Part shown: positions 1-58,947 of the stretch, piece by piece
Layout: every line of letters begins with the position of its first letter
Numbering within the stretch: position 1 is the stretch's first letter
Source: Schmidtea nova
Lineage: Eukaryota
Direction of reading: 5' to 3'
Assembly: GCA_044892505.1 (NCBI GenBank)
Contig: CM097882.1
Location: 257,424,001-257,488,000 of the forward strand
Length of the DNA stretch: 64,000 bases
Made by a program: the position numbers and the translations under genes
The notes under the pieces: model-generated
Seen by the model: only the letters and a program-made list of their open reading frames with translations
Database searches by the model: none
Told to the model about the DNA's origin: nothing

Positions 1-2
1 AC

Positions 3-506
3 CTCACGCCGAGAGGAAAAATGAGACATTTCCAATCGAGAATACATGGCATCACAGAAATTGCGAGTAGGAACCAATGCGACCAATATTTGGAGATGAA
101 ACAAATTCAGAATTTAACTGTTGGGAAAATATTGGTTGGCCATGATTTGCATGCAGAACTCCAGTATTTGAAAATTTGGACAAATCAATTATATGGCATT
201 CGGGATTTGTCCACGGCAAAGGCACTTCAATTGCAAGAAATATCGAGAAAAGGTGAATTTTTCAAACTGAAAACTGTGGTTGAACAAATGCTTGGAGAAC
301 AAATGCAAGTGCGCATCCATTCAGCTCTAGAGGATGTCAAAAACATTCGGAAAATATATCTAAAAATTGAAAATTCATGGATTGATGATATCCAAATTCC
401 CAAAGAAGTATTCATTGGAGGAATATCGAAAAGTTCATACCATAAACACAATGCCAACGACGAGCACGGCAATTACGAAAACCATTGCCCTGTCTGTGGG
501 AATTGA
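3..506 (+). CDS. DEDDh 3'-5' exonuclease, REX4/ISG20-like (5'-partial; frame open to the window edge)
   Basis: LTPRGKMRHFQSRIHGITE resembles ISG20 IRPEGEITDYRTRVSGVTP; ExoII-like ILVGHDLHAEL, IRDLST and ExoIII HSALED are present; C-terminal HCPVCG; no introns. The ExoI motif would lie upstream of the window. Confidence 0.8.
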   Translation, partial: LTPRGKMRHFQSRIHGITEIASRNQCDQYLEMKQIQNLTVGKILVGHDLHAELQYLKIWTNQLYGIRDLSTAKALQLQEISRKGEFFKLKTVVEQMLGEQMQVRIHSALEDVKNIRKIYLKIENSWIDDIQIPKEVFIGGISKSSYHKHNANDEHGNYENHCPVCGN

Positions 507-510
507 GAAA

Positions 511-825
511 ATGGCAGAGCAAATCGATTTGACAGAGGATATGGAAGTTGATTTGGAAATTGGGAAATCGAAATTGAAGTTGGCAACAGAAAATGATCTC
601 GAGGCAATTGAAGAAAACGTTGAGGTAATAACCGGTTTGTCTATCGCAAGAGTTTTAATATCATATGAAAATGGACCGATCCTCCACCTCGAAAATAGAA
701 AAAGAAAATATGCACAAATAGAAGCCAGTGAAACCATAACGGTAAATGGGATTATTTATCGGCGCGAAAAAACGTTTATTCGCTACAAAAGTGAAGTCGG
801 AAAAATTGAATTAAAATTAGACTAA
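511..825 (+). CDS. Hypothetical ~104-aa protein (MAEQIDLTEDMEVDLEIG...), directly after the exonuclease ORF
   Basis: ATG at 511 lies 4 nt after the TGA of the upstream ORF; frame is open 367-825; AATAAA at 859-864. Confidence 0.5.
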   Translation: MAEQIDLTEDMEVDLEIGKSKLKLATENDLEAIEENVEVITGLSIARVLISYENGPILHLENRKRKYAQIEASETITVNGIIYRREKTFIRYKSEVGKIELKLD

Positions 826-3103: not shown

Positions 3104-3622
3104 CTAACTATTATTATCATCGACAGTTATTGTTNNNNNNNNNNNNNNNNNNNNNNNNNNNNNNNNNNNNNNNNNNNNNNNNNNNNNNNNNNNNNNNNNN
3201 NNNNNNNNNNNNNNNNNNNNNNNNNNNNNNNNNNNNNNNNNNNNNNNNNNNNNNNNNNNNNNNNNNNNNNNNNNNNNNNNNNNNNNNNNNNNNNNNNNNN
3301 NNNNNNNNNNNCAGTTATTGTTCTTATTATTAATATTAATATTATTAATATTATTATTATGATTATTATGATTATTATGATTATTATTATTATTATGATT
3401 ATTATTATTATTATTGTTCTTGTTGTTCTTATTGTTAATTATTATATTATTATTGTTGTTGTTCTTGACTATTATTATCATCAACAATTTTAGAATTATT
3501 AGTATTATCATTATTAAGATTGCTATTACTATTAAAATAAGTATAAGTATTATTCTTAGTGTCATAATTATTATTTTCATCATTATCATCAATATGAAAC
3601 TATTACTATAATATATTGTTAT
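2990..3622. repeat. (ATT)n microsatellite with assembly gap (N 3135-3311)
   Basis: Long perfect ATT run followed by degenerate ATT/GAT repeats. Confidence 0.95.
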
Positions 3623-4628
3623 TGTTAGGATCAGGCCTTTGGCCTTAACGTTTTGAGGTTTTAATAATAATAATAATAAATTACTAAAAATAATTAAAAT
3701 AAAATAAAAATAATTTAAAACAGTTGTTAGAAAAAAAAATAGAAAAACAATTACTAAAAATAGAACCAGGCCTTTGTCTGGTAATTGTTAGAATATAATT
3801 GGCAATTATTTATTGACAAAATCGACGTAGGTAGATTTAATTTCAATATAAATAATACGGCATTTTAGTTTACAAAGGACAGACGGACGGACAGTGAAAA
3901 ACAACGTGTGAGAGAAAAATAATAAATACATTTGAAGTGAACGTTGATCGACGAAACAATCAGGGTGGTAACCTACAGCATCGAAATTTGGCATATATAT
4001 ATATATATATATACATATATATATACGTATATAGAAAAATATAGGTATTGGAGACAAGAGAGAGGAGAGAGACAGAAAAGAGAAAAAGAAAATTATCGTT
4101 GGAAAAGAAGTAATTTCTAAACTTGCATAAAAATATTTATAATCGAGTAGAGAGTGAAAGATAAATTTATCTTTTTGGTTGTAAAATCATTATTGTTAAT
4201 ATTATTTTTTAAAGCGGATACAAAGTAACGAAGATTACTTTAGTATCCTCTGGGTGCCCCAAAATCATTCCTCTTGCTTATCCTCTCTAGTAAAAAAATT
4301 TCTTAGCGATCGTTGTGCTACTGAGGTGCCAACGATTTCTTGCAGACTGTCACAAACAGTAGGGATTAATTTAATCCGAGATCTTTCTTGTTCTGTACAT
4401 CGATAAATTTTGTGAATAATTTGAATATTGTTTTGTAAATTGATTAAATAAAATTTGGAAATATAGTTAGTTTTCATTTACAGATTTTACCTGTTTTTAA
4501 AATACACGCAACCACATTAATTTTGTTATATTTATATTTATTCATTTATTTGTTATATAACAATATATAGATATAAAATAGGAGTCAATTTGTGTTAAGA
4601 TCAGCACCCCCATCTTTTGATCTTGACA
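3623..4628 (+). repeat. 5' LTR (1006 bp)
   Basis: TG...CA ends with an imperfect terminal inverted repeat (TGTYARGATCA); (TA)n/TATA-like tract near 3990-4030; 3' half duplicated at 12584-13117. Confidence 0.9.
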
Positions 4629-4631
4629 TTT

Positions 4632-4649
4632 TGGTGAGCCCGACGTGAT
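4632..4649 (+). promoter_or_regulatory. Primer-binding site complementary to the tRNA-Trp 3' end
   Basis: TGGTGAGCCCGACGTGAT, 3 nt after the LTR CA. Reverse complement ATCACGTCGGGCTCACCA differs at 1 of 18 positions from the vertebrate tRNA-Trp end ATCACGTCGGGGTCACCA (recalled sequence). Confidence 0.85.
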
Positions 4650-4764
4650 ATATTTTTTCGGGGGATATAAAAATATTATTGATCAGAAACAGTTTTCTTT
4701 CTAAATCATTGAGTTAAGAAATAGGAGAGTAAATTTTAGACCAGGTAATAGAAATCAACAGATA

Positions 4765-6822
4765 ATGGCAGACATAAATAATTTACAAAATGATAATAAT
4801 TTACAAAATAATGTCAATAATAATAATGTGCCAGTAGCTCAACCACCAGCGGTAGATTTTATGAGATACCCAACAATACCAATTAAACCATTTAGTGGGA
4901 ACCCCGGGGAGTTTCCAGAATTTATGTCCGAATATTTTCAGTTAGCCAGAGCATTAGGTTTCCCCGAACCGGTAATGATTTTGAGATTACCTTTATATCT
5001 AAAAGGGATGGCGCGTGAAATATATAATGATGTTATTATAGCCGAGCATCCAGCTGAATGGAATGTATTGCGGTTAGCGTTACAAAATAGAATATTACCC
5101 GGGGATGCAACCAGAGTGCTTAGACAACAATTTTATAATAGGAGACAGAATTTGGGTGAGCATGTTGGGGAATTTTCTTATCAAATACTAATGTTGGCAG
5201 AGAGAGCTTTTGGCGATAGGGCAGCTTGGAATGAGGCAACAAGAGCGTTAGTAAAAGACCAGTTTTGGTCAGGGTTATCGTCCGCAATGAGAAACGCACT
5301 CAGTTTACATATAGGGGATAATTTAGAGGAATTAACTCGTAAAGCTTGTTTAATTGAAAGTAGTATAGAGAAGTTAAATAATTTCGCAATTAGTACCAAT
5401 AAGTCCGACATTGAGTGTTTTAACTGTCATAAAAAGGGTCACATATCTAAAGATTGTAGGAGCAGGAATAATCCTATAGGGGAAAAATCATGTACCAGAT
5501 GCGGGAGAAACAATCATGTGGCGGCAAACTGCAGATTTTCGGACTTGAGTTGTGAGAAATGTAAACGCAAGGGACATGTAGCGTCAGTGTGTAAAGCTAG
5601 GTTTGGGGAGACTACCTCAAGTAATAATTTTAATAATAATAGAAATAGAAGCCCCGATAGAAATTTTCAGAATAATAATAATAATAAAAATTTTCAGAAC
5701 AAGAGTAATAATTTTTCAAATAATAATAATAATAATAATATAAAGAGGGATGAAGTGAATTCGGGGGGTAAAATTAAATGTCATACGTGTGGAAAATTTG
5801 GTCATATTATGCGTTCATGTCCACAAAATCAGTTGATTAATAATAATAGCAGTAATAATAATAGTGGTAGTAGTCGACCGAAACAGACTACGTTTGCAGT
5901 GAATTCTGATCACAAATTAACGTATTTACAGCAGCTTGAATTAGAAATTCAAGAAGAGAGAAATAGGTTAGCACGGCTAACGACAAATGAAATCGATGAA
6001 TACGGAGAAGATGAAGCCGAGGTGTATATGTTGTCAGCCAGAAAGGGGCGCAACAAAGATAAAAATAATAAGAGTAAATTAAGTAATGATATTGTAGCAG
6101 AACTTGAGGTATTGATGCTTCAAGAGAGTCCACAGGAGGACCGAGAGGAAAAGGCTATGGTTGTAGAACCAGAGGCTTGTGAGGGTTTACCGATTTCACC
6201 CAGTAAAAATCGAAAGACCATGGTCAGGGAACCAGAGGTCAAAAGTGGTTATGAGGGTTTACCGGTTTCACCCAGGAAAAATCGAGTGGCTATGGTCACA
6301 GAGCCAGAGGCCAAAGAAGGTTTACCGGTTTCACCTAGTAAAAATCGTAAAGTCATGGACATAGATCCAGTGGCTAATAGGAAATATCCAACAGAAGTTT
6401 TGGAAAAACGATGGGCTTCGGTCAGTGAGCCGGAAGTCTTAATAACCACATCATCCCAGAGAGATGATGGTGGCAGCAAACCAATAAAAGTTAGAGAGGC
6501 ATCGAAAGAGGAAAGTAATCCCATCGATGACTGTAAAATGCTATTACGTCATAGGAACGTATGGCAAAGAGAAATGGAACAGAGGCTAGAAAATATTAGA
6601 TTAAACCCCATTAACGAGAATGAGGTAGATAAAATAATGGATATCATATTAGAATTAAATAGAAATGATGAGTACCATCCGGTATTAAGAGAAATCCTTC
6701 GAAGCATAGGATTAAGTTGGAAGCAAAAAGGAGATCTAGAAGATTCCATAGTTTTTGTTGTCCTACCAAGAGGTTGTTTTTGTAGATATACAATAAACCC
6801 AAGAGAAAAGTCGAAGCACTAG
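4765..6822 (+). CDS. gag: Gag with capsid domain, four CCHC zinc knuckles and a long C-terminal extension
   Basis: PIKPFSGNPGEFPEF capsid start; CFNCHKKGHISKDC, CTRCGRNNHVAANC, CEKCKRKGHVASVC and CHTCGKFGHIMRSC (5416-5820); three EGLP(I/V)SPxKNR repeats; the extension ends in the first half of a ubiquitin-like fold. Confidence 0.93.
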   Translation: MADINNLQNDNNLQNNVNNNNVPVAQPPAVDFMRYPTIPIKPFSGNPGEFPEFMSEYFQLARALGFPEPVMILRLPLYLKGMAREIYNDVIIAEHPAEWNVLRLALQNRILPGDATRVLRQQFYNRRQNLGEHVGEFSYQILMLAERAFGDRAAWNEATRALVKDQFWSGLSSAMRNALSLHIGDNLEELTRKACLIESSIEKLNNFAISTNKSDIECFNCHKKGHISKDCRSRNNPIGEKSCTRCGRNNHVAANCRFSDLSCEKCKRKGHVASVCKARFGETTSSNNFNNNRNRSPDRNFQNNNNNKNFQNKSNNFSNNNNNNNIKRDEVNSGGKIKCHTCGKFGHIMRSCPQNQLINNNSSNNNSGSSRPKQTTFAVNSDHKLTYLQQLELEIQEERNRLARLTTNEIDEYGEDEAEVYMLSARKGRNKDKNNKSKLSNDIVAELEVLMLQESPQEDREEKAMVVEPEACEGLPISPSKNRKTMVREPEVKSGYEGLPVSPRKNRVAMVTEPEAKEGLPVSPSKNRKVMDIDPVANRKYPTEVLEKRWASVSEPEVLITTSSQRDDGGSKPIKVREASKEESNPIDDCKMLLRHRNVWQREMEQRLENIRLNPINENEVDKIMDIILELNRNDEYHPVLREILRSIGLSWKQKGDLEDSIVFVVLPRGCFCRYTINPREKSKH

Positions 6823-6956
6823 CCAAGAAAGTCGCTGAGGTAAAACCTCGATTGAAATGCGAACTATATTTGTTGGGAGAAAAACTATTAGAGGGAGAAA
6901 CCCTACTAGATTGTGGTATAATACCAGGAAAACAAATGCTAGTAAAAGCAAAGTTT
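6748..6956 (+). other. Ubiquitin-like domain 1, split across the ORF1/ORF2 frame junction
   Basis: IVFVVLPRGCFCRYTINPRE|KVEALAKKVAEVKPRLKCELYLLGEKLLEGETLLDCGIIPGKQMLVKAKF aligns by eye with ubiquitin ([21 protein letters not shown] vs CELYLLGEKLLEGETLLDCGI). Confidence 0.7.
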
Positions 6957-9900
6957 CACAAGGAAACTGTCACGGTAGTGGACTCAGAAAATGTCCTAAC
7001 AATAACTGAAATGGAAATAGAACAATTAAATCAAATATCAGCGATACCACAAAGATTGGGGACGGAGCTGATGCAAAACCCGAGGGACGGGGAAACCATT
7101 AAGATGATAATGGATTTGATATTGGAGTTACGAATCCCAGTAGATACTCTTAGAGAGGTTATGCCGTTGGTGGTGCCCTTATTGAAAGAAACATCACCAT
7201 TTCAAACGCAAGCAAAGATGCTAGTAATCAAAAATGGGCATGCTATTAGACACCAGGATAATAGACAAGGTCCAGTTATGTTAGATATCAGGATACCCAG
7301 GAGAGGACACCTGATACAACAATTTTCGTGTTTCCATAAAGTCAAGAAACTGAGGAAGCGAGTATCGACAATAGTAAAAGAGTCATTTATAATAATGATA
7401 CACGGTTGTCAGGTTGATGACGACGAATATTTAGTGGATGTAGGATGTTTTCCTCAAGAGGAAACTATAGTATTGATATTATTGGTCGAGCTTCCAGAGG
7501 ACCAATGGGCAACACTGAGATTGCCAGATGATGCTGAGTTAGAGAAGGATGAGATCCCTCCCGAGCAGCAACAAGTAGGTGAAGATACCCGCCTACAGGC
7601 AGGGGAAACGGTAGATTTAGATGCAGAAATAGACAAATATTTACGGGAATTCGACAACACTGAGGATGAGTTGATCGAAATAATGCCACCTATAGAAGAT
7701 GAAAGTATAAGATTGAACCAAAATGAAACGAACATCGGAGCTAGTACTTCACAGGGAATTGGGCCACCAAGAGATAGGATGAGCCCGAGATTTGTTGAAA
7801 ACAGGAGAAAGAAGGAGAGAAGAGGGAGACCAAGAAAGAGTCAAATGAACCCGCCTCCAAGAGAACTCCTAAGGCCTATCACGATACAAAGCGTAAACAG
7901 GCAGGTTTTGGCAGGGATAGCCAGCCAAATTGATAAAGGCACAAGAGACTTTAGTGCTAAAACGGAAACATGGAGGAGATTGAACCAAATATTAAGACTG
8001 ATGAAGCCCGAGTGGCAAATCAAGAAAGATAAAGCTATAAATATTGAGAAAATTACAGACAAGATTAAACAAGCAATGAATAAGATTCCGGGAAGCACAA
8101 CTGAACAGGAATTGTTCGAGGTAGCAGGACAATTTATGCAAGAAGGATTGACAAAAGGGAAAATGATAACAATTTTAGCACTAATGTTTAAAAATACCGT
8201 AATAAAACTCAAGGATGATCCATCAGGAATTCAAGTAGCCTTGGACAGGCTGACTGATATTATTGAAGTGAATTTTGAAACGTGGATGACGGAACACAAG
8301 TTTTGGGAGACGAAGGAAACGAAAGGAAAGTATGAGATAAATGAGGAAATGTTGACAGAAAATGTCTCAAGTAATCCACGGGGAACAGGTGGATTCACAA
8401 ATTGGATGATGATGTTATTAGTAATGATGGGAATATTGAGACAGACAAACTCCTTAACAGCATACGACTGTAGCGAACCGATATTAGCACGGATTTACTC
8501 ATTAGTAGACACAGTGGAATGCAAGGAAGCATATCCAGATAAAGTTGCAAAACGAGAGGATGTAGAATACCATGTTTATCAGCAAACAGAGTTTTATAGG
8601 ACCAGGGTGAGGGAATGTCGAATACAGAGAGCGACATTTGAGTATTACTGTGGATCACACAGTTATACAGCGTTTCTAGTAGCTAAGCTCATTCCAGTAC
8701 CATTGATAATCCCACCAGAGGATTGCATAAATGCTTTTAGATCTAAAAATGTCAAAATAGATGACGAAGTGACAATCACAGCAGAGGAAGGAAAGAAGCT
8801 GGGTATAACGATTACCAGAGGAGGACCGATAGCAGATGATGGTTCTTGCACCGGTAGAAAGAAATTAAGAGGTTCTAATATTGTGAGTTATGTAGTAACA
8901 GTTGAGGATTACACTGTAGAGCTGATAGAATACGAAGGAACATTTGAAGTATCCACGGGTAAAATGATGTCCCATCCTGAATGTAATGTAAAGTTTGGGT
9001 ATTGTAAAACCAGCACAGCGGTACTAACATATCAATCAATGAGAGAATTTTGCGATTTGGGATACCTGAAAAAAGTAGTATTTTCAAGACTTGATGGGAA
9101 AAGTTTTGCAGCACAAGAGTCACACCAAAGCGGGTGGGGAGATAAGATAACTCACAAGACGAAAAAAGAGAAAGTATCCGAGAAAAGCACAGCAGTAGTT
9201 TTAGTCGCAAAGGATCCAACCGATGCTATCCGACTAGTTAGAAAGAAGCAGATAACAAAATGTGGTGTGCCAATATTCGAGACAAACTATAAAGGAATAT
9301 TCTTAGCATACAAATATGTTCCGGCAGCAGAAACATTACATTTGTCAGATATAAAAATAGCAAAATATATCAATAATAAAATTGACTTTTTGTATCATGA
9401 TTTACAGAAGCAATTGTTAGACGTTTATCAGGAAGTGATCTTGAATGATTGCCGTTTAAACAGGGAAATAATACGAAATAGATTAGCAACATCTATTTCA
9501 AACCCTGATTTAGTAATGCCAATGTTAACCGAGGAGGGAACATTTGGTAGAATTTTGGGAGAAGCAATTTATAGCTATCAATGCAAGGCGGTGGAGGTAG
9601 AAATAACCAAATACGATCAATGCACTTTAGAGCTTCCAGTAAAATATAAAGGAAAATTAAGATTTATGATACCAGTATCACATCAGTTGATGGGAGAAGA
9701 TGCGACTCCATTGAAGACAATTTGTAATCCAGCAATGTCACCGTTATATAAAATCAACAATATATGGATTTCCTTACCAGATAGGAAACCACCTTCTAAA
9801 CCAGTAGAAGTGTTGCAGGCGACTAAATTGGAAACTAAAATGGAGTTTCGACCATTAAATGAGATGTCAAAAGGGGGAGTATATACTCAGGAAGATATTG

Positions 9901-12602
9901 AAGAAGCTAGGAGAGCAATAGTGTTTCCTCAAATCAGAGATAGAGGAGTGACAGAGATAATAACTAGAATTTATCAATCATACGACGGTAAACCGGACTA
10001 TAATTTATTATTTGGACCGGAACACTACAAGCAAGCAGCATCAAACGTGATTCGGAGAATCTGGGGAAGATTCACAAGTTTCGGAATTTTTGTAGCAGGA
10101 TGTTCAGGCATATACGCTATAGTGATGATATTGAAAATAATCATATCACAATTATTTTCCACATATAGTATCTTCAAAATCGGAGGATGGTCTTGGAAGT
10201 TGCTATTGGGAATGTGCCCACTTTGTGCAGATTTCGCAGTATTTCATCATCACAATAAAGAAATCAAGAAAATGAAAAGACAAAATGTAACAAAGCACGA
10301 AATAATAAAGTATGAATATAGTCATCGAGACGATGACAATTCTGACGAGGGAGGTAACCTAGAGGGCGACAAGACCTCATATAACACCTCAACAAAACCA
10401 GACAACAAAAAACCGAATTTTCAAAATTTTGAAACTAGTACTTTTCAACAGTACCCTGTTAAAACAAAAAGACGAAAACAACAGGAATGGCCTGTGAAAT
10501 ATGTGTCACCATATGAAACTAGGAGAAAGATAATACCAGAAAAAGTGGAAGAGGAGATGTTGAGGCGTTTCGATTTTAGGACAAACGCAGGTATATCAGC
10601 ACCTCCTATACATTCAGAGTATCACATGAATTTCGAGACAATGCCACCTTTGGGAACATCGGTACTAGAAACAGTACCAAAATATCCGTTTAGCACGTTA
10701 GAGAGGCTAAAGGAAAATTATCAAGATGAAATAAAATCGGAAGACGACAGAGATAGCGAGAATCAACAGAAATTCAGAGATAATATTCGAGGAATATCAA
10801 CAGTGTTTATGGTAAATTCCAGCAAAAAGACGCACAAGCCTACAATTAAATTAAAGGTTAATAGGCATACGGTTCATGCCATTATCGATTCAGGATCAGA
10901 TGTAACACTGGTTGAAGCAAATTTATTAAATGAAAAAGAATTACAAGCAATAGTACCGACATTAACAATTACATCAGGAGCAAATGGTCAGCCAATCAAT
11001 GTTATCGGGACATTAGATTGTGAGCTGAGGCTATGTGATCAGAAATTTAGACACGATATCAAGGTCACCAGACAGTGTATGGCAGAATGTATCGTGGGAA
11101 TGGATATATTAAAAAAGTTAAAAGATATAGTATTTGATTGTGCGACAGGTGAATTGGTAAAAATGACGGGTAGAAAACGGAAAACATACAGTGTTGATGT
11201 AGTTTTTCTGGATAGATCTGTGAAAATACCACCAAGAACCGAAACAGTTTGTTTTGTGGCAACACACCAAGAGGTCGAGGGAGATGTTATTTTCGAACCC
11301 AGTGAGCAGTTCATGAACAGATATAAAACACCTATGGTGCAGAATTTGGCAACAGTACGGGGAGGAAGAATCCCAATTAGATTAACGAATCTAGCGAATA
11401 AATCATTGAGGTTGTACCCAGAGACAAGAGTGGGTAAAGTGATACAACTTTCCAATCCTAGGAAAGAGTCTGAATCAATATTATCGGTGAGCGAGGAGGA
11501 ACGAGATCCCGATATTGAGTATTACGATGCACCTAGTTGTGATAGTAAAACGTTAACGAGAAAAGAGAATATTAGAGTTAATCAATTATTACGAAAATAT
11601 GATCAAGTGTTCGCAAAGCACGAATATGACTTAGGGCAAGTTAATATTTTAGAGCATGAGATTAAACTAACAGAGAGTAAACCAATAAAGATACGTCCGT
11701 ATAGAATACCTCAAAGCATACAAGGGTCCGTGGATAAACAAATAAAATTAATGCAAAAATATAATATAATCAGACCAAGTAAATCTCCATATTCTTCACC
11801 CTTGGTGATTGTAGCTAAGAGAGATGGTTCCGTTAGATTGTGTAATGACTATAGGAAATTAAATGAACAAACTGTAAGTGATAATCACCCACTACCTTTG
11901 TTAGATTATATATACGATAAAATGAAAAATTCGAAACTGTTTACTGTGATGGATGCACAGAAAGGATTCTATCAAATAAAAATGAGCGAAGACTCAATTC
12001 CTATGACAGGATTTTCAACTAGTAGTGATCATTTTGAATATTTAGTAATGCCGTTTGGACTAAAAGGAGCACCTCCAACTTTTCAGAGGGCTATGAATAT
12101 TATGCTGATGGATGCACATCACGCAATGGTATATATTGACGACATTATCATTTTCTCGGAAAATTTAGATAAGCATTTAGAACATCTTGAGGATATTTTT
12201 AAACGGTTAATCATGGCAAACTTGAAAGTTAAACCAAGTAAATGCAAGTGGGCAGAATCAGAAGTGATTTACGTAGGGCATGTAATATCACACGATTGCG
12301 TAAAACCAGATCCGGCTAACACGGATAAAGTAAAGAATTTCCCGCAACCAGTGAACGTGAAACAAATTAAAGGATTTTTAGGGTTGACGGGATATTATAG
12401 AAAATTTATTAGGAATTTCTCTGCAATCGCTTTTCCTTTGACTACGTTAGAAAAGAAAGGAGTAAAATTTTTATGGGGAGAGGATCAGCAGCAAGTATTT
12501 GATAAGTTGAAAGATGCATTATGCAAACCTCCAATCTTACGATTTCCAGATTTTAAAAGACAATTCATGGTGATGACAGATGCATCGTTGGAAAAGAAGT
12601 AA
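6786..12602 (+). CDS. pol: Polyprotein in the -1 frame: Ubl modules, Bcl-2-like domain, class III envelope glycoprotein, aspartic protease, RT, truncated RNase H
   Basis: Single open frame from after TAG 6783-6785 to 12602. [11 protein letters not shown] protease (D at 10887), RT motifs [14 protein letters not shown] and YIDD (12132), [12 protein letters not shown], then FMVMTDAS, which runs into LTR sequence. Confidence 0.93.
   Translation: [1938 protein letters not shown]
7275..7487 (+). other. Ubiquitin-like domain 2
   Basis: [71 protein letters not shown] follows the beta-grasp pattern (V..L+..V; I.I.G.Q.DD..L.D.G....ETIVL). Confidence 0.65.
7878..8312 (+). other. Bcl-2-family-like domain within the polyprotein
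   Basis: BH1-like [22 protein letters not shown] vs Bcl-xL [22 protein letters not shown]; BH2-like [14 protein letters not shown] vs HLEPWIQENGGWDT (same W-x6-W); G-to-W spacing 42 vs 43 aa; N-terminal [12 protein letters not shown] resembles BH4 QSNRELVVDF. Confidence 0.78.
8394..10280 (+). other. env: Envelope glycoprotein of chuvirus-G / gB type (class III fusogen), embedded in the polyprotein
   Basis: Hydrophobic signal [20 protein letters not shown] then LTAYDCS; Cys-rich ectodomain ([37 protein letters not shown]); C-terminal [28 protein letters not shown] and GWSWKLLLG match the membrane-proximal/TM pattern of chuvirus-like glycoproteins found in LTR elements. Confidence 0.88.
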
Positions 12603-13117
12603 TTTCTAAACTTGCATAAAAATATTTATAATCGAGTAGAGAGTGAAAGATAAATTTATCTTTTTGGTTGTAAAATCATTATTGTTAATATTATTTTTTA
12701 AAGCGGATACAAAGTAACGAAGATTACTTTAGTATCCTCTGGGTGCCCCAAAATCATTCCTCTTGCTTATCCTCTCTAGTAAAAAAATTTCTTAGCGATC
12801 GTTGTGCTACTGAGGTGCCAACGATTTCTTGCAGACTGTCACAAACAGTAGGGATTAATTTAATCCGAGATCTTTCTTGTTCTGTACATCGATAAATTTT
12901 GTGAATAATTTGAATATTGTTTTGTAAATTGATTAAATAAAATTTGGAAATATAGTTAGTTTTCATTTACAGATTTTACCTGTTTTTAAAATACACGCAA
13001 CCACATTAATTTTGTTATATTTATATTTATTCATTTATTTGTTATATAACAATATATAGATATAAAATAGGAGTCAATTTGTGTTAAGATCAGCACCCCC
13101 ATCTTTTGATCTTGACA
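12584..13117 (+). repeat. Partial 3' LTR (534 bp, lacking the first 472 bp)
   Basis: Same length as 4095-4628 with no difference seen by eye; ends GATCTTGACA followed by TTAT. Confidence 0.95.
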
Positions 13118-13430
13118 TTATTATCAATAATATTTATTAGTAGCAATAATATTTATTATTATTAGTGTTGTATTAACATTATTCTTATACTCATAAAATT
13201 ATCATCATTAACATTATTATTATAAGCATAAAATTATTCTTATTAAAATTATTATGAATATGGTTAGCGGTAATTATAATGATTAGTATATTATTATTTT
13301 TACAGTTATTATTATTAGTAGTATTATTACCAATTATAAGTTTAATTATTATTGATATCATTATTATAAAAAGTAAATTATGGTCATTAATAATATGGTA
13401 ATATTATTATATTAAATTGTAAATTATTGT
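13118..13430. repeat. Degenerate ATT-rich tract flanking the LTR element
   Basis: Continues the low-complexity tract seen left of 3623. Confidence 0.8.
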
Positions 13431-14336: not shown

Positions 14337-15563
14337 AATACTATTTAGAAATCAATTTAAATTATGCAAATAAATAGATGTATATAAGTACATGTCTGTA
14401 AATATAATATATTAACATACATTACCGATGGTGCGCTTATCAACATTCTACATCGTTGAACCAAACTCCATTTTTCAAGATACCGATCTTTTTTCACTTA
14501 AACTAAATGAGCTATACTTGAATGAGATATTTTCTGATGTGGAACGCCAGATTAAATGGCTTGCGCGGTGTAAGTTGATCAAGAATATGCATCTTTGCCG
14601 CCACTGCAATGATGACAAATACTTGCGTTTGGTCCGAAGAACATCCTCGACTGATGGTTTCTACTGGAAATGCAATGCAACATGCAAACACACGGCCTCG
14701 ATCCGAGCCGGAAGTGTATTTGACAATATTAATATGACATTTGAGAAAGTCATTAAAGCCATTTACAAGTATACAAATGGCTGTTCTTTCGTTGATATTG
14801 CCTTTGACCTACACATGCATAGAAATACGGCGGGGGAAATTGGGAAATTGGCTAGGGAAGCAATTTTGCAGTACATGGCCGATAAAAGTGATAAGTTGGG
14901 GGGTGTTGATTCGTGTGGCAATGCCAAAATTGTAGAAATGGACGAAAGTCTATTTTTCAGAAGGAAATACAATCGCGGCAGAATAAGGAATGGACAGTGG
15001 TTTCTTGCGGGCATTGAACGGGGAACCAGAAAGATATTTATCATACCGGTCGAAAACAGGAATGGCGATACGATCGCAGGTGCGATTGTAGACAATGTTG
15101 AGCCAGGCTCCATGATAATAACGGACAAATGGAGAGCCTATGGGTCTGCAATACGAAATTTAGGGGGATATGGGCATGCAACAATAAACCATACATTGAA
15201 TTTTGTGGATCCAGAGAATTCGGAAATTCATACGCAGAATGTGGAGGGTTTGTGGTCAAGAAGCAAATATTCCCTGCGAAAACGGATAGGAATGAAACAA
15301 GAAGCACATACGGAGTATTTAATACAATTTATGTGGGAATATTCCGTGGAGAGGCGCAAAAGACTGCATACGCTTTTGAAAATTCTACATGTTTTGGACG
15401 TGAAATGATGTTAATTTTATTTCCTACTGGTTAGTAAATAGTTGAATTTATGGATGAATGTAACTATATACAATTTAGTTAATGTATGTTAATATATTAT
15501 ATTTACAGGCATGTACTTATATACTTATTTCTTATACTTATGTACTTATTTCTAAATAGTATT
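14337..15563 (+). mobile_element. Merlin (IS1016/IS1595-like) DNA transposon with ~85-bp imperfect TIRs
   Basis: Left AATACTATTTAGAAAT...TAAGTACATGTCTGTAAATATAATATATTAACATACATTA is mirrored at 15480-15563; no TSD recognised. Confidence 0.8.
14428..15408 (+). CDS. Merlin/ISXO2-like DDE transposase, intact, 326 aa
   Basis: N-terminal zinc ribbon (CRHC...WKCNATC); catalytic VEMDES, ITDKWRAY and TQNVEGLW; RKYNRGR motif. Confidence 0.93.
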   Translation: MVRLSTFYIVEPNSIFQDTDLFSLKLNELYLNEIFSDVERQIKWLARCKLIKNMHLCRHCNDDKYLRLVRRTSSTDGFYWKCNATCKHTASIRAGSVFDNINMTFEKVIKAIYKYTNGCSFVDIAFDLHMHRNTAGEIGKLAREAILQYMADKSDKLGGVDSCGNAKIVEMDESLFFRRKYNRGRIRNGQWFLAGIERGTRKIFIIPVENRNGDTIAGAIVDNVEPGSMIITDKWRAYGSAIRNLGGYGHATINHTLNFVDPENSEIHTQNVEGLWSRSKYSLRKRIGMKQEAHTEYLIQFMWEYSVERRKRLHTLLKILHVLDVK

Positions 15564-23249: not shown

Positions 23250-23605
23250 AATTTTGGTAAATCTGTAATATGAAATAATAATTCTTCCCTTAAAATGAAA
23301 TGTGCCAAGGAATGTCGTGAGATCTTTGGTGCTAACGATACTAATATGTTGTAGGAAAATGCTCATTAAGAGAAGAGGTATAATTGGAGATATTGTTATG
23401 CCCAACCGGAAAATTGTATTCATAATGGATGCAAATGCGTGACCCTTTTTTGAATGTATCATGCTGATAAATATTAATGAGTGAAATGGCGTGGTATGTG
23501 TGTATTGGTAGATGAATATTTTTTGTACAGTAATGGATGTGGATGTATTCATTTCATGATATCGTGATGGGTATTTTACAATGGGTATTTTACAATGGGT
23601 ATTTT

Positions 23606-23641
<36 letters not shown>

Positions 23642-26140
23642 ACGGTAAATGTACATTACCAGGTAAATGTATATATTAACTGCAAGATTTGGCAAATGTA
23701 CATATAACATACATTTACCGATTATTTAGTAATCATTTATACTTTTACCTAGAGGAATGGTAAAAGTGTAAAGGAATAAAGTTAATTATTCGAGTATAAT
23801 ATAATTGATAATAATGTTTATTATACCAAAACCAAAATTTCTTAATAATTGTTTTAAGGTTATGTTTATTATTTTATGTTTATGTTTTTAAGCGTAAATT
23901 AAAACTCAACAAATTTTCTAGGTGCATTATTAAACAGCAATTATTGTAAATATTACAATTTTAAGTAAGTTTTATTATAGTTCATGATTTACGTAATAAT
24001 TTTATAAACCTCAATACTAAATATTGCAGAAATGAATCAACGAGAAGAATTTCTATGTGTACATTTACCGGCGAATGTGTACATTTTGACATTATTTCTA
24101 CATTTTACAAGACCTTGATATAATGTATACATTTACCCGTAAATGTATGTATAACAAACTTTTTCGAAATAGTAAACTTACATTTACCCATTGGTGTGGT
24201 CTATGTGTACATTTACCGGCGAATGTGTACATTTTGACATTTTGTACTATAACCGTAACACACACACACATATATACATATATATATATATATATATTGT
24301 AAAATACCCATTGTAAAATACCCATTGTAAAAATAAAATAATAATTATGTAATAATTATAATGTAACTAAATTTTTAAACTCGATAAAATTTATATAATA
24401 AAAAATTCTTGTTTAACAAATTTTATATATTAATAATTCGAGTTAAATTTTTTCATATAATATTTTTTTTATAAAAGTAAATTTTATTTTTTACAAAATT
24501 TAATTTCGATCATATAGGAACTTCCGAAATAAAATATATATAAAATTTCAAGACGGTTCTTTTGGCGATCTCGAATACTCAAAATCCTAGATGCAATTCT
24601 TAGAAGTTTTTATCAATAATGTTTCAATGGAATATTATCGAGCATAATCCGTAAGCATAATTCGATATAACATTTTTATTACTCTTTCGGTGGTTATTTA
24701 TGAGGTTTTCATACATTCGACTTTCTAAATGATTCTATACATTTATTCATAATGAGGTAAAGACCATGTTCATTGAGCGAAGGTGATTAACGAGGTAAAT
24801 GCATATTTTCGATTTATTTTTATTATGTCCGAATTTTTATGTAGTTATAAGAGTTATATAATGTAATATAAATAAATATAAATACTATAAATAAAATATT
24901 CATTTGCGTCTTTGAATACCGCATCGCATTTCAAAAAATGTAATAGGATTCTAGACGTTAATTATTTTGAACAGACCTTGCGCTTAGCCCAGCCACTACT
25001 ACTCATATAGCCAGGTATGAGATGAAGCGTTATTGGATGTTTGCGCTCACTTCGATTAAAATATGGATAAGAACACTGAAAGGACTCCAGCGAACTGATG
25101 ATTCACCATAGCGACTAATGACGGTACAACAACTAGGTGGACCATTATCAGACATATAGAAATGGTTTTAATGAGAAAAAATATAGATATGCATATAAAT
25201 AAATAAATGAATAACAATATAATGATGTTAGTTTGTGAGAAAATGTGATCAAAGTAACAAATAAAATTTAAAATCAATCAAAATACCTATGGCAGGGTAA
25301 TGAAGGCATGATTCGCTAGCCTGCATAACAAAAAAACTCAAGATCCTTACATAATCACTCGCATAGGATTCGCCGCTCGGTTCAGATGTGGTTAAGAGTA
25401 AATTGGATTGTATTCGTCCGAGATCACGAATGCGAGTCTTGGATTTTTTCGCAAAACTTCCGAATTTTGTAAATCGGAAATTGATTGACTGTTTCTGGAA
25501 ATCTTTCGAGTGGTTCACTTTCACAGAAATTTCTCTTCAAGCAAATTCTCTCTTAAAATTTTATTGCTAAAAACAATTTAAAATTTTTAACAAAAAAATT
25601 CTGGCAAATTTTGATGGGGTTTATATAGTTGTTTCAAACTGTTATTTTTGTTGATGTATTAAAACAAATTGTTCTAGAAGGAATTTTCGATTATTTCAAA
25701 ATTAATTTTAATAATTTTAAGCAAAATTGAATTATTATTTTTGTAAAAATTTTTATAAAACTTTAAATAATTTACTTTCTGATCTAAAAATTTATTTTTA
25801 AATCAAAGTTTTTCTAATTTAGTTTAATTTACCAAAATTTTAAACTAAAACAATTTTTTTTATATTTCTTTGAATTTTTAAGTTAAAATCGAAAGTTTCA
25901 TCAGAAAATATGTTAATTTTTCCTAGTTTGTTATTTTATTACATTATTGATGTTTTTATGTTATATTTGTGTTTTCAACGTGTATACTTGATGCATTTTT
26001 GTTCAGTTTAATTTTTAAACGTGTTTTATTTAATTATTTGTGTGCTTTGTTGTTACTGTGTTTTACTTGGTGTTTTTCTCAATCGTATTTTAAGTCTACT
26101 TCATGCGCATTCTCTAAATGCTGTATTACCGCGTTATTTA
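23250..26140. repeat. Copy A of an unclassified ~2-3 kb interspersed repeat
   Basis: Collinear similarity with 33120-35250 (e.g. TTCATTGAGCGAAGG, GGATTCTAGACGTTAA, AAAATACCTAYGGCAGGGTAA, TTCTAGAAGGAATTTTCGA); end motif also near 48580-48620. Confidence 0.85.
23567..24332. mobile_element. Foldback/MITE-like insertion with compound TIRs
   Basis: Left: (ATGGGTATTTTACA)x3, (TA)n, GTTACGGT. Right: ACCGTAAC, (CA/TA)n, (TGTAAAATACCCAT)x2.5. Internal TACATTTACC repeats; absent from copy B of the host repeat. Confidence 0.75.
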
Positions 26141-27161
26141 AATAAAATTCATTTTTCGCCCAACAATTTTATCAATAACCCACGATATTGATACGATTTG
26201 TACACTTTGAGAATTAATTCCTTTAACCATCGCTTACAAAAGGCCTGAGTTAATATTTAATTCATTTCCATCTCAACCGTAGTCTAGCTGTCCCCGTCAT
26301 TGTAGTGTTTTCCTTCATTTCTCTTTTCCATTAACAAATAATTTAGTGTGATTTTAACAACATCTGGCATTTTCCATATTTTTTTCCTAGTTCCCACTTT
26401 ATCTCTGACGGCTGTCGATATGCCGATTTTGTTTTCGTTTTCAAATTTTGGTATTTATTTGCTTTGTTGTTTAATTTCTTTTATTTTTTTACTACTTCCT
26501 AATTTCTCAATTTTTGCTTTCCATTTTCTTCTCCAAGTTCCAGAATACCATCTCAATTACGCTATTGGTTCACACCCAATTTATTCATGATATATTTAAC
26601 TATTTAGTTATCCTCAACAATTTTTTGTCCTTCGAAATTACTTTGTATGTCCACATTTAATTTTAATTTATTCATTTAATTTACTTATCTTTATGTATTA
26701 CTAACTTCTGAAACATATTTATCCTAAATTTTTAACAAGATTAAATAAAATTATATTAATTATATAGACTGTTTTCAAAAGAATTCGCTACTTCATTCTT
26801 GCAGTCTTATTGAAGAGTGTAAAGTATTTCAAGTGTTTTTAGAAATTATTTTAAATTAATAATTGTCAAATATTTAAAGGATATATCATGAGCAATTGAA
26901 TAAAAAACTTTTAAGTATAACACAAATTTAAGAAATATCTTTCAGAAATATATTTCACTCTTGTTTATTTGACTCCTGACAATTGATTTTTAAAACTAAT
27001 AAAAATTACGAACAAAAACAAAAAATACATTTAGCGACATTCAATTGAATGATTAAATGAAAAAACAAACGTATTTGATTACTTTTGTGTTTTAGCTGTC
27101 ATTGAACATGACAAATAAATTTTGAGTTAAAAACCATTTTTTATAATTTTCTTCCAATATA

Positions 27162-28611
27162 TACCATTTTCCGGTCAATTCAGTCTTTTTGCCAACCAAT
27201 TTAGTCCTTTTTTAAATAATTTAGTCTTTTTACCAATCAATTTAGTCCTTTAATAATAAATTGAAATTTATAAATTTTATAGCAGTTTAATACAAAAAAA
27301 ACCAACTATAAATTTTTTGATGAACATACGCCATTCCAGCTGCACAATTAATAATATTACGAATAATATATCTAAAATACCCAGAACAATCCCTAGAATT
27401 TATAGTTATTGTTTCTGCCATAATCAGTTCAGATAATGTACCGGTTAAACCTTCCATTAATTTAGATCGAACTCCATTTTTAATTTTAGATTGGGTTTAG
27501 CATATATGAATAAGGTGATAGGAACTTAAAATCAAATCCATATTGAGAAGTTATTCTTTTCATATCATCTCTTCGGTGAATACGCGCATTATCTAAAATT
27601 AAACAGGCGTTCTCCATTTCTTTAACATCTCTTAAGTACCTACATAGCTCGTTAATATATTTATTAAATATATCGGAATTAACTGTTGAATTAGTAATGG
27701 TTTTACAAAATCCCATTCCGTCAACTGTGAGACTGGCAATTAAAGAAACCGAACGACCCCTGACAGTTGGCATTCTTACTATAGCCCTTGTTCCTCGCTT
27801 AGACCTTTCATATGATCTTTTGAGGTGTAAATTAAAACCGCTCTCATCAAAAAAAAGGCTTTTAAATAGTCATTTTCAAAGTAATTATTGAACCATATTG
27901 AGTATTGCTTTCGTAGTTCAATTTTTACCCTTTCAAGCTCTCGATGCGTTAATTTTATCGTGATTTTAAGCTCTTGAAGGCACCTATTGATTGTTGAAAC
28001 GGAAACAATGTTCCTGTTTTGCGATTCAATTTGAAGAGCCCTTTTGATTTGATTTAACGTAAATTGAGAATTGAATGTAACTATGTTCTCAATTTCGTTG
28101 ATAATTTCAGGTGTTAGTATCTTTTTTTGACTTCACCTTTATTTTTCAACTCTGTCTTGCCTCTTTTTTCGTAGTTTTTTAATATAGTTTTTGCTGAACT
28201 ATAATTAATTTCTAATAATGAAGAGGCCTCTTTAATGTTCTGCCCTTGATCATTAACTAAACGTATTAAACTTAGTCTTTTTTCATTTGAAATAGAATTG
28301 TTTTTTCCAGAGCTGTTCCTATTTCTAGTACTATGATTAATTCTGTCTTCACCGTTATTATTCATTAAATAGGGTATTAAAAATTTTTGTAAATCCTTGA
28401 AAGGCGCGGTAAATTAATGATTCTAAATAAATAAATTTTAAAATATTTATTAATTCGAAAATGACTATTTTGACTGAAAAAAAGACTAAATTGATTGGTA
28501 AAAAGACTAAATTGCTTGATAAAAGGACTAAATTGATTGGTAAAAAGACTAAATTATTTAAAAAAGGACTAAATTGGTTGGCAAAAAGACTAAATTGGCT
28601 GGAAAATTGTA
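27162..28611 (-). mobile_element. Tc1/IS630-type transposon, pseudogenised, TIRs built from 21-bp tandem units
   Basis: TA-flanked ends; GACTAAATT units at 28484, 28505, 28526, 28547, 28567 and 28588, with four inverted copies at 27178-27248; HTH N-terminus, FFDESGF, LILDNARIH and LSPYSYMLNPI* with frameshifts. Confidence 0.9.
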
Positions 28612-28903
28612 TATATTCCGCACTTCGTCGGACCCACTCATTTCAAAATTTTACGCAATATTATTAAATATTAAACTACTATTAAAAATAAGTAGTATAA
28701 TTATAATAAATAAAATTCTAGAATTCTATGATGCCTTTGTGTTTTTACCTGTCAATTCCTCCACCGTTTTCTAAATCTACTAATAATAATTATCAATAAA
28801 TAAAATCTGATAAATTGCAAATAAAAAAGTTATTACAAATATCATGGACTAATTGTATTAAATTGTTGCGAAGTATGGAAAAAGAGAATGTAAATATACG
28901 TTG

Positions 28904-33119: not shown

Positions 33120-35250
33120 TTGGATGCTGTGAGTTGCAAGTATACATATTATGAGATGTTATTTGCAATGAATTAGTAACATGGGATGTCGTAGATGCAA
33201 ATTGATAATTATATGTACTTTTATAGACGAAATAGTGAGTTTTCAGTGTAGTAATTTGAATATATATGATGCGGTTGGATGAAGTGGGTAATTCAATGAT
33301 GAATGTGAATGGGTAATTTTTTTGCATGGATTTTCTGGATGTATGATGCTGATGGGTGTTAATGAATGAAATGATGTGGTATGTGTGTAATTGTAGATGA
33401 ATAGATTTTTTATGTTGTATTAGATATGGATGGTGTTAATAGGTGGTATGGGTGTATTCAGTTGTGAATATGAGTGTATAATTATTTCGTGATATCGTGG
33501 GGAGGGGTATTTTATAAAATTTATAATTTCTTCAAAATAAATTTAAATTTAAAATTCTAAAAAATTTATATGTAATAATAAGATTTTTGGTTTATAATTT
33601 TTACATTCTAAAGATCCCATCCTAATTTTTACATAATTATTCACAAAAATAAAATTTATTTTGATAACAATCATATGCGAAATTTTGATAAAATATATAT
33701 AAAGTTTCAAGACATTTCTTTTGGAAATTTCGAATAGATAAAATGTTCAGAGGTTTTTTATAGTAAGATTTTGGACTTAAAGTGGAGTTCAATTGAATAA
33801 TATCAAATATGATCCGAAAGTGTAATACAATATAGACATTTCTATTACTCTTTGAGGTGTTAGTTAAGAACTTTTAATATATTCGACTTCTTAAATGACT
33901 TTGCTATTTCTTTCATAGTGAGGTAAAGACGACATTCATTGAGCGAAGGCGATTTACGAGATGAATGAACATTTTTGATTTATTTTTATTATGTCCGAAT
34001 TTTTATATAGTTGTGAGAGCTATGCAATTTGATATAAATAAATATCAATAAAATACTATAGGAAAAATATTTATTTGCGTTTTTGGATACCATATCGCAC
34101 TTTAATATAAATGTAATAGGATTCTAGACGTTAAATTAATTTGAAAAATACTTGCCCTTGGCCAAGACACTGTTTCCAAACATTAGTGTATGGGATGAAG
34201 TGATCATGGATGTGTGGGCCTCGCCTTAGATAAAAATATGGACTGACCGTTGATGAACCTCAACTAAACAGCGATCCACCTAGGCTACTTTCGTCAGTAC
34301 AACTCAAGGCCAGACTGACTTCAGAATGTACGGAAGTGATTTTAATGAGAAAAAATATAGATATGCATATAAATAAATAACAAAATGTGACAAAATTAAA
34401 ATTTAAATAGAAAAATTATAATTTCCAAAAAAAATCATGAATAACATATTAAATCGTACAATAACGTATTACCAATATTCCAATTGAAAGGCCAATTAAA
34501 ATACCTACGGCAGGGTAACGAGGGCGTGACTAGCTAGCCTGCATAATAGAACAATTCAAGATCCTCACATGCTTGTCTTGGAATTTTCGCAAAACCTCCG
34601 GATTCTAAAAGTCGGGAACTGATTGATTGTTTTCCCAGTTGGTTTTGTAAAAATTTTCAAAAATATCACTTTCGCAGAAATTTCTCAAAATTTTCGAACA
34701 AATTCTGATGATTTCCATTTTGATGGCGGTATTTATAGGATGTTCTGCATGTTGTTTCCATTGTCGCAGTAAAAAAATTGTTCTAGAAGGAATTTTCGAC
34801 TTTTCCAAAATTAATTTTAACAATTTTACGCAAAACTGAATTATTATTTTTGCATAAAATTTTAATAAAACTTTAAATAATTTATTTTTAATCTAAAATT
34901 TTAATTTTGAATTAAAGTTTTCCCTAATTTAGTTTAATTTGTTACATTTTTAACTAAAACAATTTTCTTTTATATTTTTACGAATTTTTAAGATAAAATC
35001 AAAATTTTCCTTCTAAAAATACTTTAATTTGTCCTAATTTGTAGTTTTATTACATAATTGATGTTTTTATGTTATATATGTATTTTCCACGTGTATATTT
35101 GATGAGCTTTTTGTTAATTTTAATTTTTAAACGTGTTTTATTTAATTATTTCTGTTTTACTTCGAGTTTTGACTCAAAGAATTTTAAATTTACTTCGTGC
35201 GCGCTCTCTACGTGCTGTGTTACCGCTTCATTTAAACAACTCTTAGTTTT
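33120..35250. repeat. Copy B of the unclassified interspersed repeat
   Basis: Collinear with 23250-26140. Confidence 0.85.
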
Positions 35251-41566: not shown

Positions 41567-42772
41567 GGATCATGTACATTATACGACATCATATGCCGTA
41601 TAATGTACATGATATTTTTAATTTAAATTTTAAATTTAAACTTTTAATCAATTTAAATAATTTTTGATCAATTTAATTAAACATTTGATCAAGTTGGTTA
41701 GTTAGTTTATGGTATTTAAAAAATAATTAGTTGTTCCCTAATGCATTTCGAAAACGAACTTGAAGAAATTATACAATTGAATGATGAGCAAGTTGTTTCT
41801 AGACTAATGCATCTGGGATTTATTCATTCTCACATGGAATGTCCTTGGTGCAGTGTGGAAATGATTATGAAGCCTTGCAAAGGCAAGATTGATAAGTTTG
41901 AGTGGCGATGCATGCACTCAGGATGCATCAAGAAGCATGCAAGCCTCTCAATTAGGCATTCTAGCTGGATGGAGGAGTATAGACTTACCGCAAAGTCTAT
42001 ACTAAAAGTGCTATTATACTGGTCTAATGACATTAATCAAAATGTCATTTTAAGATTTGTGGACATTAGTAGAGGCACATTGTCAAAACTAAGAAAATTT
42101 TATATATCCAGGATTGAGGAATACTATAATATTCATCCAATATTATTAGGTGGCCCAGGATGTGTGATTAATGTTGACGAAACAATGATAAATCACAAGG
42201 TGAAGGCCCATAGAGAAAGAGCCCCTCACATTCAGACTTGGGTTTTATGTATCGTGGATACATCATTTGTTCCTTCTCGAGGTTTTTGTACTATCCTAGA
42301 GAATAGAACTGCCTCTCACATACTCCCTATTATTTCTAGAGTTGTTAGGCAAGGCTCCACTGTTTATACCGATGAATTTGCATCGTATAATCAATTAAAG
42401 AATATGAATGACTACATTCATCAAACAGTGTGCCACAAATATCATTTTGTGGATCCAATCTCCAGTGTTCATACTCAGAATGTTGAAAGCTTTAATAACA
42501 AGCTTAAGAGTAAGATCAAAACAATGAAAGGTCTTGACGATGCAGGGAGAAAACTATTTCTCAATGAATTCATGTTTTTTGATCAATTTAAAGATCAAAG
42601 TTATGATATGATTTTAAGTTTGTTAAAAATAAATCAAATTAAATTTTAATTTTTTTTAATTTATAATTTTTTTGATTATTTTTTTGATTATTATTTATTG
42701 ATTATTATTAATTTAAAAATAAGCCGTATAATGTACATGATCACTTTTTATGCCGTATAATGTAATTGATCC
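41567..42772 (+). mobile_element. Complete Merlin transposon (1206 bp) with 8-bp TSD GAACATTT
   Basis: GAACATTT|GGATCA...TGATCC|GAACATTT; the GATCATGTACATTATACGGCA motif occurs twice at each end. Confidence 0.97.
41741..42649 (+). CDS. Merlin/ISXO2-like DDE transposase, intact, 302 aa
   Basis: CPWC...WRCMHSGC zinc ribbon; INVDETM, YTDEFASY and HTQNVESFN catalytic motifs. Confidence 0.95.
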   Translation: MHFENELEEIIQLNDEQVVSRLMHLGFIHSHMECPWCSVEMIMKPCKGKIDKFEWRCMHSGCIKKHASLSIRHSSWMEEYRLTAKSILKVLLYWSNDINQNVILRFVDISRGTLSKLRKFYISRIEEYYNIHPILLGGPGCVINVDETMINHKVKAHRERAPHIQTWVLCIVDTSFVPSRGFCTILENRTASHILPIISRVVRQGSTVYTDEFASYNQLKNMNDYIHQTVCHKYHFVDPISSVHTQNVESFNNKLKSKIKTMKGLDDAGRKLFLNEFMFFDQFKDQSYDMILSLLKINQIKF

Positions 42773-58310: not shown

Positions 58311-58947
58311 CAAATGCCAATAAAAAATTATATTCTGCTAATTATATTCTGATAAATTCCTTCTCATCATTAGGTACTATTCAGTCAACCATTACAATAT
58401 AAATTAAATAAATTGATTTTCAAACCAATTAATCATAACTTTTTAAAAAAGATGCAATATATAATTTTATAAAATAGCCAGAACATTTAAAACGATAAAA
58501 TTATTTTTTTAAATATTTTTTTTTTTGATCTTTGTTCTATACTCGTCAAATTATTCAAATTTCATTGGCGAAATGCGACCTACTTTAGAAAAGACTGATC
58601 GTCTTTTCTCTACTTTAGTTTTAGAAAATTGTCAATTGATGATGATGTGTTTGGTCTTAAATCATACTTATTTATAAATATGGGAATATTTATGAAATAT
58701 TTTTAAAAAATATATTTTTTTTAAAAAGAATATGGTTTTTAAAGATTAATTTATCTAAATTAAAAATAATTTTATCGTTTTAAATGTTTTGGCTATTTTA
58801 GAAAATTATATATTGCATCTTTATTAAAAGGTTATGATTAATAATCTATCTATTTGATTTAGATTGGAATGGTTGAATGAATAACACCTTATGATGAGTA
58901 GTTTCTCGAAATATATTGTGCAGAATATAATTTATGGTTGGCGTTTG
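58311..58947. repeat. ~195-bp inverted repeat (58311-58512 / 58759-58947) with a ~245-bp spacer
   Basis: AAGATGCAATATATAATTTT.TAAAATAGCCA.AACATTTAAAACGATAAAATTATTTTT is mirrored; both arms carry ATGATGAG. Confidence 0.85.

Follow-up and report, generated by a model that had tools for sequence, protein, structure and literature searches.

The LTR element at positions 3623-13117 of the window, the whole stretch of 64,000 nt analyzed here from contig CM097882.1 of Schmidtea nova, is a damaged member of a gypsy-type LTR family of ~15.3 kb (family A). All lines of evidence taken together lead us to a reading to which we assign a probability of roughly 80%: the window holds a recently inserted and since damaged copy of an element whose single frame of ~3,550 codons has the layout of the Burro elements and of the GAG-ENV-POL errantiviruses. 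The frame of family A encodes, in this order, Gag, two modules of a helical part and a ubiquitin-like (Ubl) domain, an AT-hook, a likely Bcl-2-like domain, an envelope protein (Env), protease, reverse transcriptase (RT), RNase H, and integrase, and ends in what is predicted to be a second membrane protein. The parts found in the window copy, and the two that had to be located in other copies, are listed in Table 1.

Table 1. Features of the family A element, with counterparts from other families where L053, L082, P0002, or window 3-506 is named; positions are those of the window unless another stretch is named
Feature	Position	Strand	Remarks
Target site duplication (TSD), TTAT	3619-3622 (left copy); 13118-13121 (right copy)		4 bp
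5' LTR	3623-4628	+	1,006 bp, TG..CA ends
Primer-binding-site-like tract starting TGG	4632-4648	+	behind the 5' LTR
Gag, capsid-like region and four CCHC zinc knuckles	4765-5830	+	zf-CCHC E=3.5e-12
Three 62-nt repeats in the linker between Gag and cassette	6181-6377	+	repeat family D17
Module 1, helical bundle and probable Ubl domain	6520-6960	+	spans the frame break of the window copy
Region of the copy-specific frame break	6786-6822	+	splits the single ORF of the family in two
Module 2, four-helix bundle and ubiquitin/SUMO-fold domain	7008-7484	+	pLDDT about 60-85
AT-hook-like RGRP motif	7818-7838	+	invariant core in families A, B, and C and in P0002
Bcl-2-like helical domain (candidate), divergent BH1/BH2-like motifs	7875-8315	+	profile matches; aligned sister domains
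Internal signal of Env, predicted	8403-8453	+	hydrophobic stretch, by eye
Class III (mononegavirus/gB-type) Env ectodomain and TM helix	8454-10142; TM 10086-10142	+	PF24664
Aspartyl protease	10833-11123	+	Pfam
RT core	11814-12287	+	RVT_1 E=3.6e-31
RNase H start	12474-12585	+	truncated by the ~5.77-kb deletion; overlaps the LTR remnant by 2 bp
3' LTR remnant	12584-13117	+	last 534 bp of the LTR
Post-integrase region	L034:3902-4846; matching ORF1 ends in P0002 and in stretches L053 and L082		deleted from the window copy
3' ORF, about 690-830 codons	L034:4940-7126, L053:3450-5597, L082:2575-5058; window 3-506		ISG20/ISG20L2 match

The 4-kb block of cassette and env has at least 37 matches in the genome (37 scored of 436 candidates), and every one of the 37 spans the whole block at 96 to 100% identity. 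A search with the Bcl-2-like domain returned, among the best 150 of 497 candidates, 92 matches that belong to family A and 58 that belong to a sister family, B; 33 of the 92 lie inside frames of 3,520 to 3,567 codons, and the frames of family B reach about 3,450 codons. A reading made from the sequence alone (the sequence-only reading) had placed Env and the cassette inside a separate Pol frame, and this has to be revised, the family having one Gag-Env-Pol frame. Its view that the block at 6560-10280 is an integral part of the element is upheld by the scored matches, all of which carry the complete block, and by purifying selection on it (see below). Of the 36 other copies listed, 20 were fetched, each as two stretches that were analyzed separately. 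The full-length copies that the sequence-only reading had proposed to look for do exist, as 8 of the 20 are open from Gag through integrase/the end of ORF1, and a second (3') ORF of at least 690 codons is kept in 14. The Pol order, read in a family copy, is protease-RT-RNase H-integrase. LTR pairs were found in 16 copies and are 95.3 to 100% identical, five of them at 100%; eight copies have clean TG..CA ends and a matched 4-bp TSD, and the element length is 15.0 to 15.5 kb. Three copies (L019, L022, and L024) lie on different contigs but agree in their TSD and in the lengths of LTR and element; they may represent one insertion within a duplicated region.

At the locus itself, the sequence-only reading had described identical LTR copies. 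The 5' LTR with its TG..CA ends stands, and the identity holds for the shared segment (534/534 bp between the remnant and 4095-4628 of the 5' LTR), but the 3' LTR is not full-length. That the insertion, which has TTAT on both flanks, is young is borne out by this identity and by the empty target site: in contigs of 4/4 public runs (from a single study), position 3618 is joined directly to 13118, with 9,499 bp skipped. Since the empty site is joined in the contigs of all four runs, the insertion is likely polymorphic and recent. LTRs with TG..CA ends and TSDs of 4 to 6 bp are features of Ty3/gypsy elements, and the window copy and family copies have such LTR ends and 4-bp TSDs. Troyka, which has CG ends and 3-bp TSDs, was considered as an identity and rejected. 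The tract behind the 5' LTR, a putative primer binding site that may be of the tRNA-Trp type, recurs with no more than two mismatches next to the 5' LTR of the 16 family copies for which an LTR pair was found, and a search of the host tRNA genes for a match to it retrieved Lys and Arg genes only. The tRNA genes occur in tandem arrays (stretches L101-L130), tRNA-Lys(TTT) with a period of 419 bp and tRNA-Arg(TCG) with a period of 264 bp.

Two lesions private to the window copy account for its two-frame appearance and for the absence of integrase. The "two long open frames" of the sequence-only reading are indeed present (4705-6822, 705 aa, and 6786-12602, 1,938 aa), but the break between them near 6.8 kb is a copy-specific lesion, seen in 0 of the 20 other copies. 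The second lesion is a deletion of ~5.77 kb that starts within RNase H and ends within the 3' LTR. It removed most of RNase H, the integrase, the post-integrase region, and the 3' ORF, shortened the LTR by 472 bp, and left the first 38 Pfam positions of RNase H. Its junction is spanned by 1 of 40 scored genome matches, the window itself. The deletion probably postdates reverse transcription, because the 5' LTR retains the segment that is absent from the 3' LTR; an assembly error may be an alternative source of the deletion at 12584.

The amino-terminal part of the polyprotein begins with a Gag whose four CCHC knuckles, claimed from the sequence alone, are recognized by Pfam, and whose match to Retrotrans_gag is no better than E=0.13. 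Two helical-plus-Ubl modules had also been claimed, and for module 2 this is confirmed by structure. Its second half superimposes on ubiquitin/SUMO-fold chains in a structure search (Z 12.2, rmsd 1.4 Å, 72 residues), so that the modeled Ubl identity of this half is well supported. The domain lacks a C-terminal Gly-Gly and is therefore likely an integral domain and not a modifier. For module 1, the claim rests on alignment and pattern: it aligns with module 2 and with families B and C, its model has a pLDDT under 50, and a ubiquitin-like second half is probable. As to the helical halves, a role as integrase tethers resembling TFIIS-N or the LEDGF IBD had no Pfam support, and the best PDB profile match (E=0.07) was to unrelated helical proteins; in the fold search with module 2, the matches were taken up by the Ubl domain. 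The AT-hook-like motif, likewise claimed before, is retained in view of its invariant core, and the Pfam AT_hook match in the protein P0003 is no better than E=8.4.

The assignment of the Bcl-2-like domain, made from sequence profiles, is of moderate confidence. The claim finds support in the sister families, in which Pfam Bcl-2 matches the aligned domain at E=2.1e-5 (family C) and E=0.028 (family B), but family A itself is weak, with BOK as the sole match among PDB sequences at E=0.98. A profile of three sequences retrieved Bcl-2 family chains at E=1.5 to 2.2, behind unrelated helical repeats, and the structure model of the domain is of low confidence. With regard to a host Bcl-2 origin, a three-sequence profile matched only one of six host Bcl-2 loci, at E=0.3.

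Some 35 residues after the BH2-like motif follows the predicted signal of Env, and a hydrophobic stretch, judged by eye, is common to families A, B, and C and P0002 at this position. The class III glycoprotein between gag and pol, as proposed from the sequence, is confirmed: it matches the Monjiviricetes fusion glycoprotein PF24664 of Pfam at E=1.3e-80. Fourteen cysteines are in register in families A, B, and C, which are about 36 to 62% identical, and the ectodomain has 0 to 1 N-glycosylation sequons in these families. A comparison of Env with PDB sequences gave no match.

Protease and RT, both of them already read from the sequence, were found by Pfam. The spacer of ~115 aa between the two, where Burro has a dUTPase-like segment, is conserved and has no dUTPase match in Pfam. 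In families A, B, and C and P0002, ORF1 extends beyond the integrase and is predicted to encode there a second signal, an ectodomain rich in beta structure, and a TM helix. For the ectodomain, an atlas search points to fibronectin type III (FN3) with a score of 0.87, and a Foldseek search with a low-confidence model had a best E of 6e-4, with nearly all of the matches listed being of FN3 type; an FN3-like identity is a lead. Homology of this region to that of P0002 rests on position and hydrophobic pattern, because hhalign gave a probability of 0.2%. The 3' ORF, deleted from the window copy, matches ISG20L2/ISG20 exonucleases at E=3.4e-14, and those of its motifs that resemble a catalytic site look eroded in A and B and, next to the better-kept copy at window 3-506, also in C.

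Purifying selection acts on every module, the cassette included. The sequence-only reading had suggested a comparison across copies, and this comparison came out in favor of constraint on the cassette and Env (0.03 to 0.15): in pN/pS ratios summed over 10 of the 20 copies, chosen for open frames and set against one shared reference, so that the comparisons are not independent, module 1 has 0.15, module 2 has 0.03, the Bcl-2-like domain has 0.09, and Env has 0.04, with 0.04 for protease, 0.02 for RT, 0.39 for the linker, and 0 for the capsid (0 nonsynonymous versus 72 synonymous differences).

Two further families of the same genome have the domain order of family A, family B with an ORF1 of 3,448 aa and family C with an ORF1 of about 3,060 to 3,080 aa. 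The order recurs in P0002, an ENA protein of 4,057 aa, which is the family backbone plus ankyrins. Families B (stretches L052-L069) and C (L081-L088) are both multi-copy; family C has a single helix-plus-Ubl module and at least 150 matches, all scored rows being at least 88% identical. The RT phylogeny proposed earlier could be answered in part: a tree of seven RT rows, which include no named gypsy reference, supports the grouping of A with B and resolves no other grouping. The kinship to Burro rests on layout and not on a tree.

The sequence-only reading knew of no element with this whole architecture; it is already published, for Burro/GYPSM1 (PMC6431247) and for the GAG-ENV-POL errantiviruses of ~15 kb (PMC13524379). 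In the former paper (Arkhipova and Yushenova 2019; PMC6431247), Burro1-4/GYPSM1 of S. mediterranea and a Burro-like element of Dugesia tigrina are described, with a polyprotein of Gag with CCHC, Ubi/SUMO-like and BCL2-like parts, an in-frame mononegavirus-like Env, and PR-RT-RH-IN; a provirus nature and an interference with apoptosis are stated there as hypotheses. Family A shares with Burro/GYPSM1 an Env that lies in frame within one ORF running from gag to pol and a Ubl domain (that of module 2, Z 12.2 with 72 aligned residues) upstream of the candidate Bcl-2-like domain. Directly before Env, where Burro/GYPSM1 has its BCL2-like domain, family A has this candidate, with E=0.98 in family A itself. 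Burro, however, exceeds 30 kb, with an ORF1 of 4,873 to 5,140 aa and with MATH, BIR, ankyrin, and Smc-like parts (PMC6431247), whereas family A, at 15.0 to 15.5 kb and about 3,550 aa, is not of giant size, has no MATH, BIR, or ankyrin match in Pfam in the window or in a family copy, shows no Smc-like part either, and carries two helix-plus-Ubl modules and an AT-hook.

Family A has the features of Platyhelminthes GAG-ENV-POL errantiviruses that we examined, namely, layout, Env, and copy number. Smed_errantivirus_1 to _6 are multi-copy elements of 14.5 to 18 kb with the order GAG-ENV-POL and an Env of the HSV/gB type, according to Chary and Hayashi 2026 (PMC13524379). As in these, Env of family A lies between gag and pol and is of class III with a predicted signal and a TM helix, and there are multiple near-identical intact copies (the 33 of 92 matches in long frames), with a DNA identity of 96 to 98%. 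The Env domain is identical to that of Smed_errantivirus_4 at ~160 of 252 residues (~63%, counted by hand), and family C resembles Smed_errantivirus_3 by eye; unlike Smed_errantivirus_1 to _6, family A is a distinct family of another genome. The main text of PMC13524379 has no mention of Bcl, ubiquitin, Burro, exonuclease, fibronectin, in-frame, or polyprotein, so that this text gives no account of the cargo or of a single ORF. The FN3-like post-integrase protein and the ISG20-fold 3' ORF were not found in the passages of PMC6431247 and PMC13524379; Grohme 2018, Repbase, or Dfam may describe them. More distant parallels exist for single parts. Anakin, as described in the passages of PMC7642597, is also an LTR element with a class III glycoprotein of the negative-strand RNA virus type, but it is a BEL/Pao element with a chuvirus glycoprotein, and no Ubl/Bcl-2 cassette is described for it there. 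In LTR elements of bdelloid rotifers, too, an additional 3' ORF encodes an exonuclease of the DEDD fold (DEDDy exonuclease ORF3; PMC5408684), whereas the 3' ORF of the present families is of ISG20/ISG20L2 type, has motifs that look eroded in A and B, and coexists with Env.

How such an element might work can be modeled from its domain order. A single translation product would provide Gag, Env, and Pol in equal amounts and would be cut by signal peptidase at the two internal signals and by the protease of the element. This would give a Gag-Ubl-Bcl2 part and the Pol enzymes in the cytosol, Env with its TM helix on the lumenal side, and a type I membrane protein of FN3-like character, and the separate 3' ORF would add an ISG20-fold protein. 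The Env signal may stay behind as a membrane (tail) anchor of the Bcl-2-like domain. Judged from sequence, a putative role of Env in the passage of particles between cells is likely, and so is a putative role of the Bcl-2-like domain in delaying the death of producer cells. It is imaginable to go further and to regard the families as true enveloped viruses, with entry by two glycoproteins, a polyprotein in the style of flaviviruses, an FN3 protein that binds or triggers the gB-type fusogen, a signal-anchored viral Bcl-2, and an ISG20-fold decoy of RNA defence; we consider this extended version rather doubtful.

The same parts could serve an intracellular retrotransposon, in which Env and cargo have a role within the cell (anchoring of assembly, budding into the ER, or folding of the polyprotein), with neither spread nor an effect on apoptosis. 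The 0 to 1 sequons in the Env ectodomain of the three families would fit such a role, and so would Bcl-2-like motifs that are far from canonical; furthermore, according to PMC13524379, a route of transmission is known in Drosophila only. Env, however, is as constrained as the protease (0.04) and has kept its 14 cysteines, as expected for a working fusogen, and we hold a purely intracellular role to be quite unlikely.

Highly improbable, in our judgment, is a separate lineage that reached a Burro-like layout independently and deserves a class of its own. Half the size of Burro, the lack of BIR, MATH, and ankyrin matches, and a post-integrase membrane protein and an ISG20-fold ORF that are absent from the published passages could be taken in this sense, as could the statement in PMC13524379 that GAG-ENV-POL elements are not monophyletic. 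This is countered by the hand-counted Env identity to Smed_errantivirus_4 (~160/252) and by P0002, which bridges both forms, with ankyrins on the same backbone. There is next to no chance that a one-off nested insertion or a misassembly put env and cargo into an ordinary gag-pol element, a possibility that the sequence-only reading had raised against itself and that the broken window copy with its missing integrase might suggest. It is refuted by the whole block in 37/37 scored copies, by the fetched copies, and by the 33 of 92 matches in single long frames, and an order common to three families and P0002 is against it as well; moreover, contigs of the 4 runs cover 30 of 30 bins.

With the damaged copy in the window read as a member of a family of Burro and GAG-ENV-POL layout, the locus adds a family and not a concept, since the layout is known already. 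Family A is only half as large as Burro, has been active recently, and is strongly constrained in every module, which makes it a tractable case for several questions: how one polyprotein can deliver capsid, fusogen, and enzymes to the two sides of a membrane; whether the Bcl-2 of a retroelement affects host cell death; and how errantiviruses with a gB-type Env enter without the helper glycoproteins of herpesviruses, a role for which the predicted FN3-like protein is a candidate.

Other repeats came to light in the course of the analysis. A high-copy BIR repeat (L089-L100, e.g., L094:4101-9543 and L095:379-3257) has at least 150 matches (150/150 scored; 1,295 candidates) and ORFs for a SUMO-like, protease, and ankyrin protein (1,053 aa), a TRAF-like RING-zf-MATH protein, an IAP-like BIR and RING protein, and an unknown protein of 527 aa. 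When it was considered as a giant Burro, RT was adjacent in 0 of 3 fetched copies; it is possibly a non-autonomous Burro derivative. Just upstream of the family A element, window 1-825 (together with L051:3107-7786) is the terminal part of a fourth env-pol family, truncated at its 5' side, which is preceded by ORFs for a protein-primed DNA polymerase B of the Polinton type. Elsewhere in the window are two ISXO2/Merlin-type transposase ORFs, a Pao peptidase fragment, and a DDE_1 transposase fragment (14416-15408, 41720-42646, 52682-53389, and 55601-56443), MITE-like pairs of long terminal inverted repeats (23574-24332, 27156-28617, and 58428-58842), and a diverged duplicated segment (24670-26043 versus 33836-35155), whose two copies lie about 9.1 kb apart.
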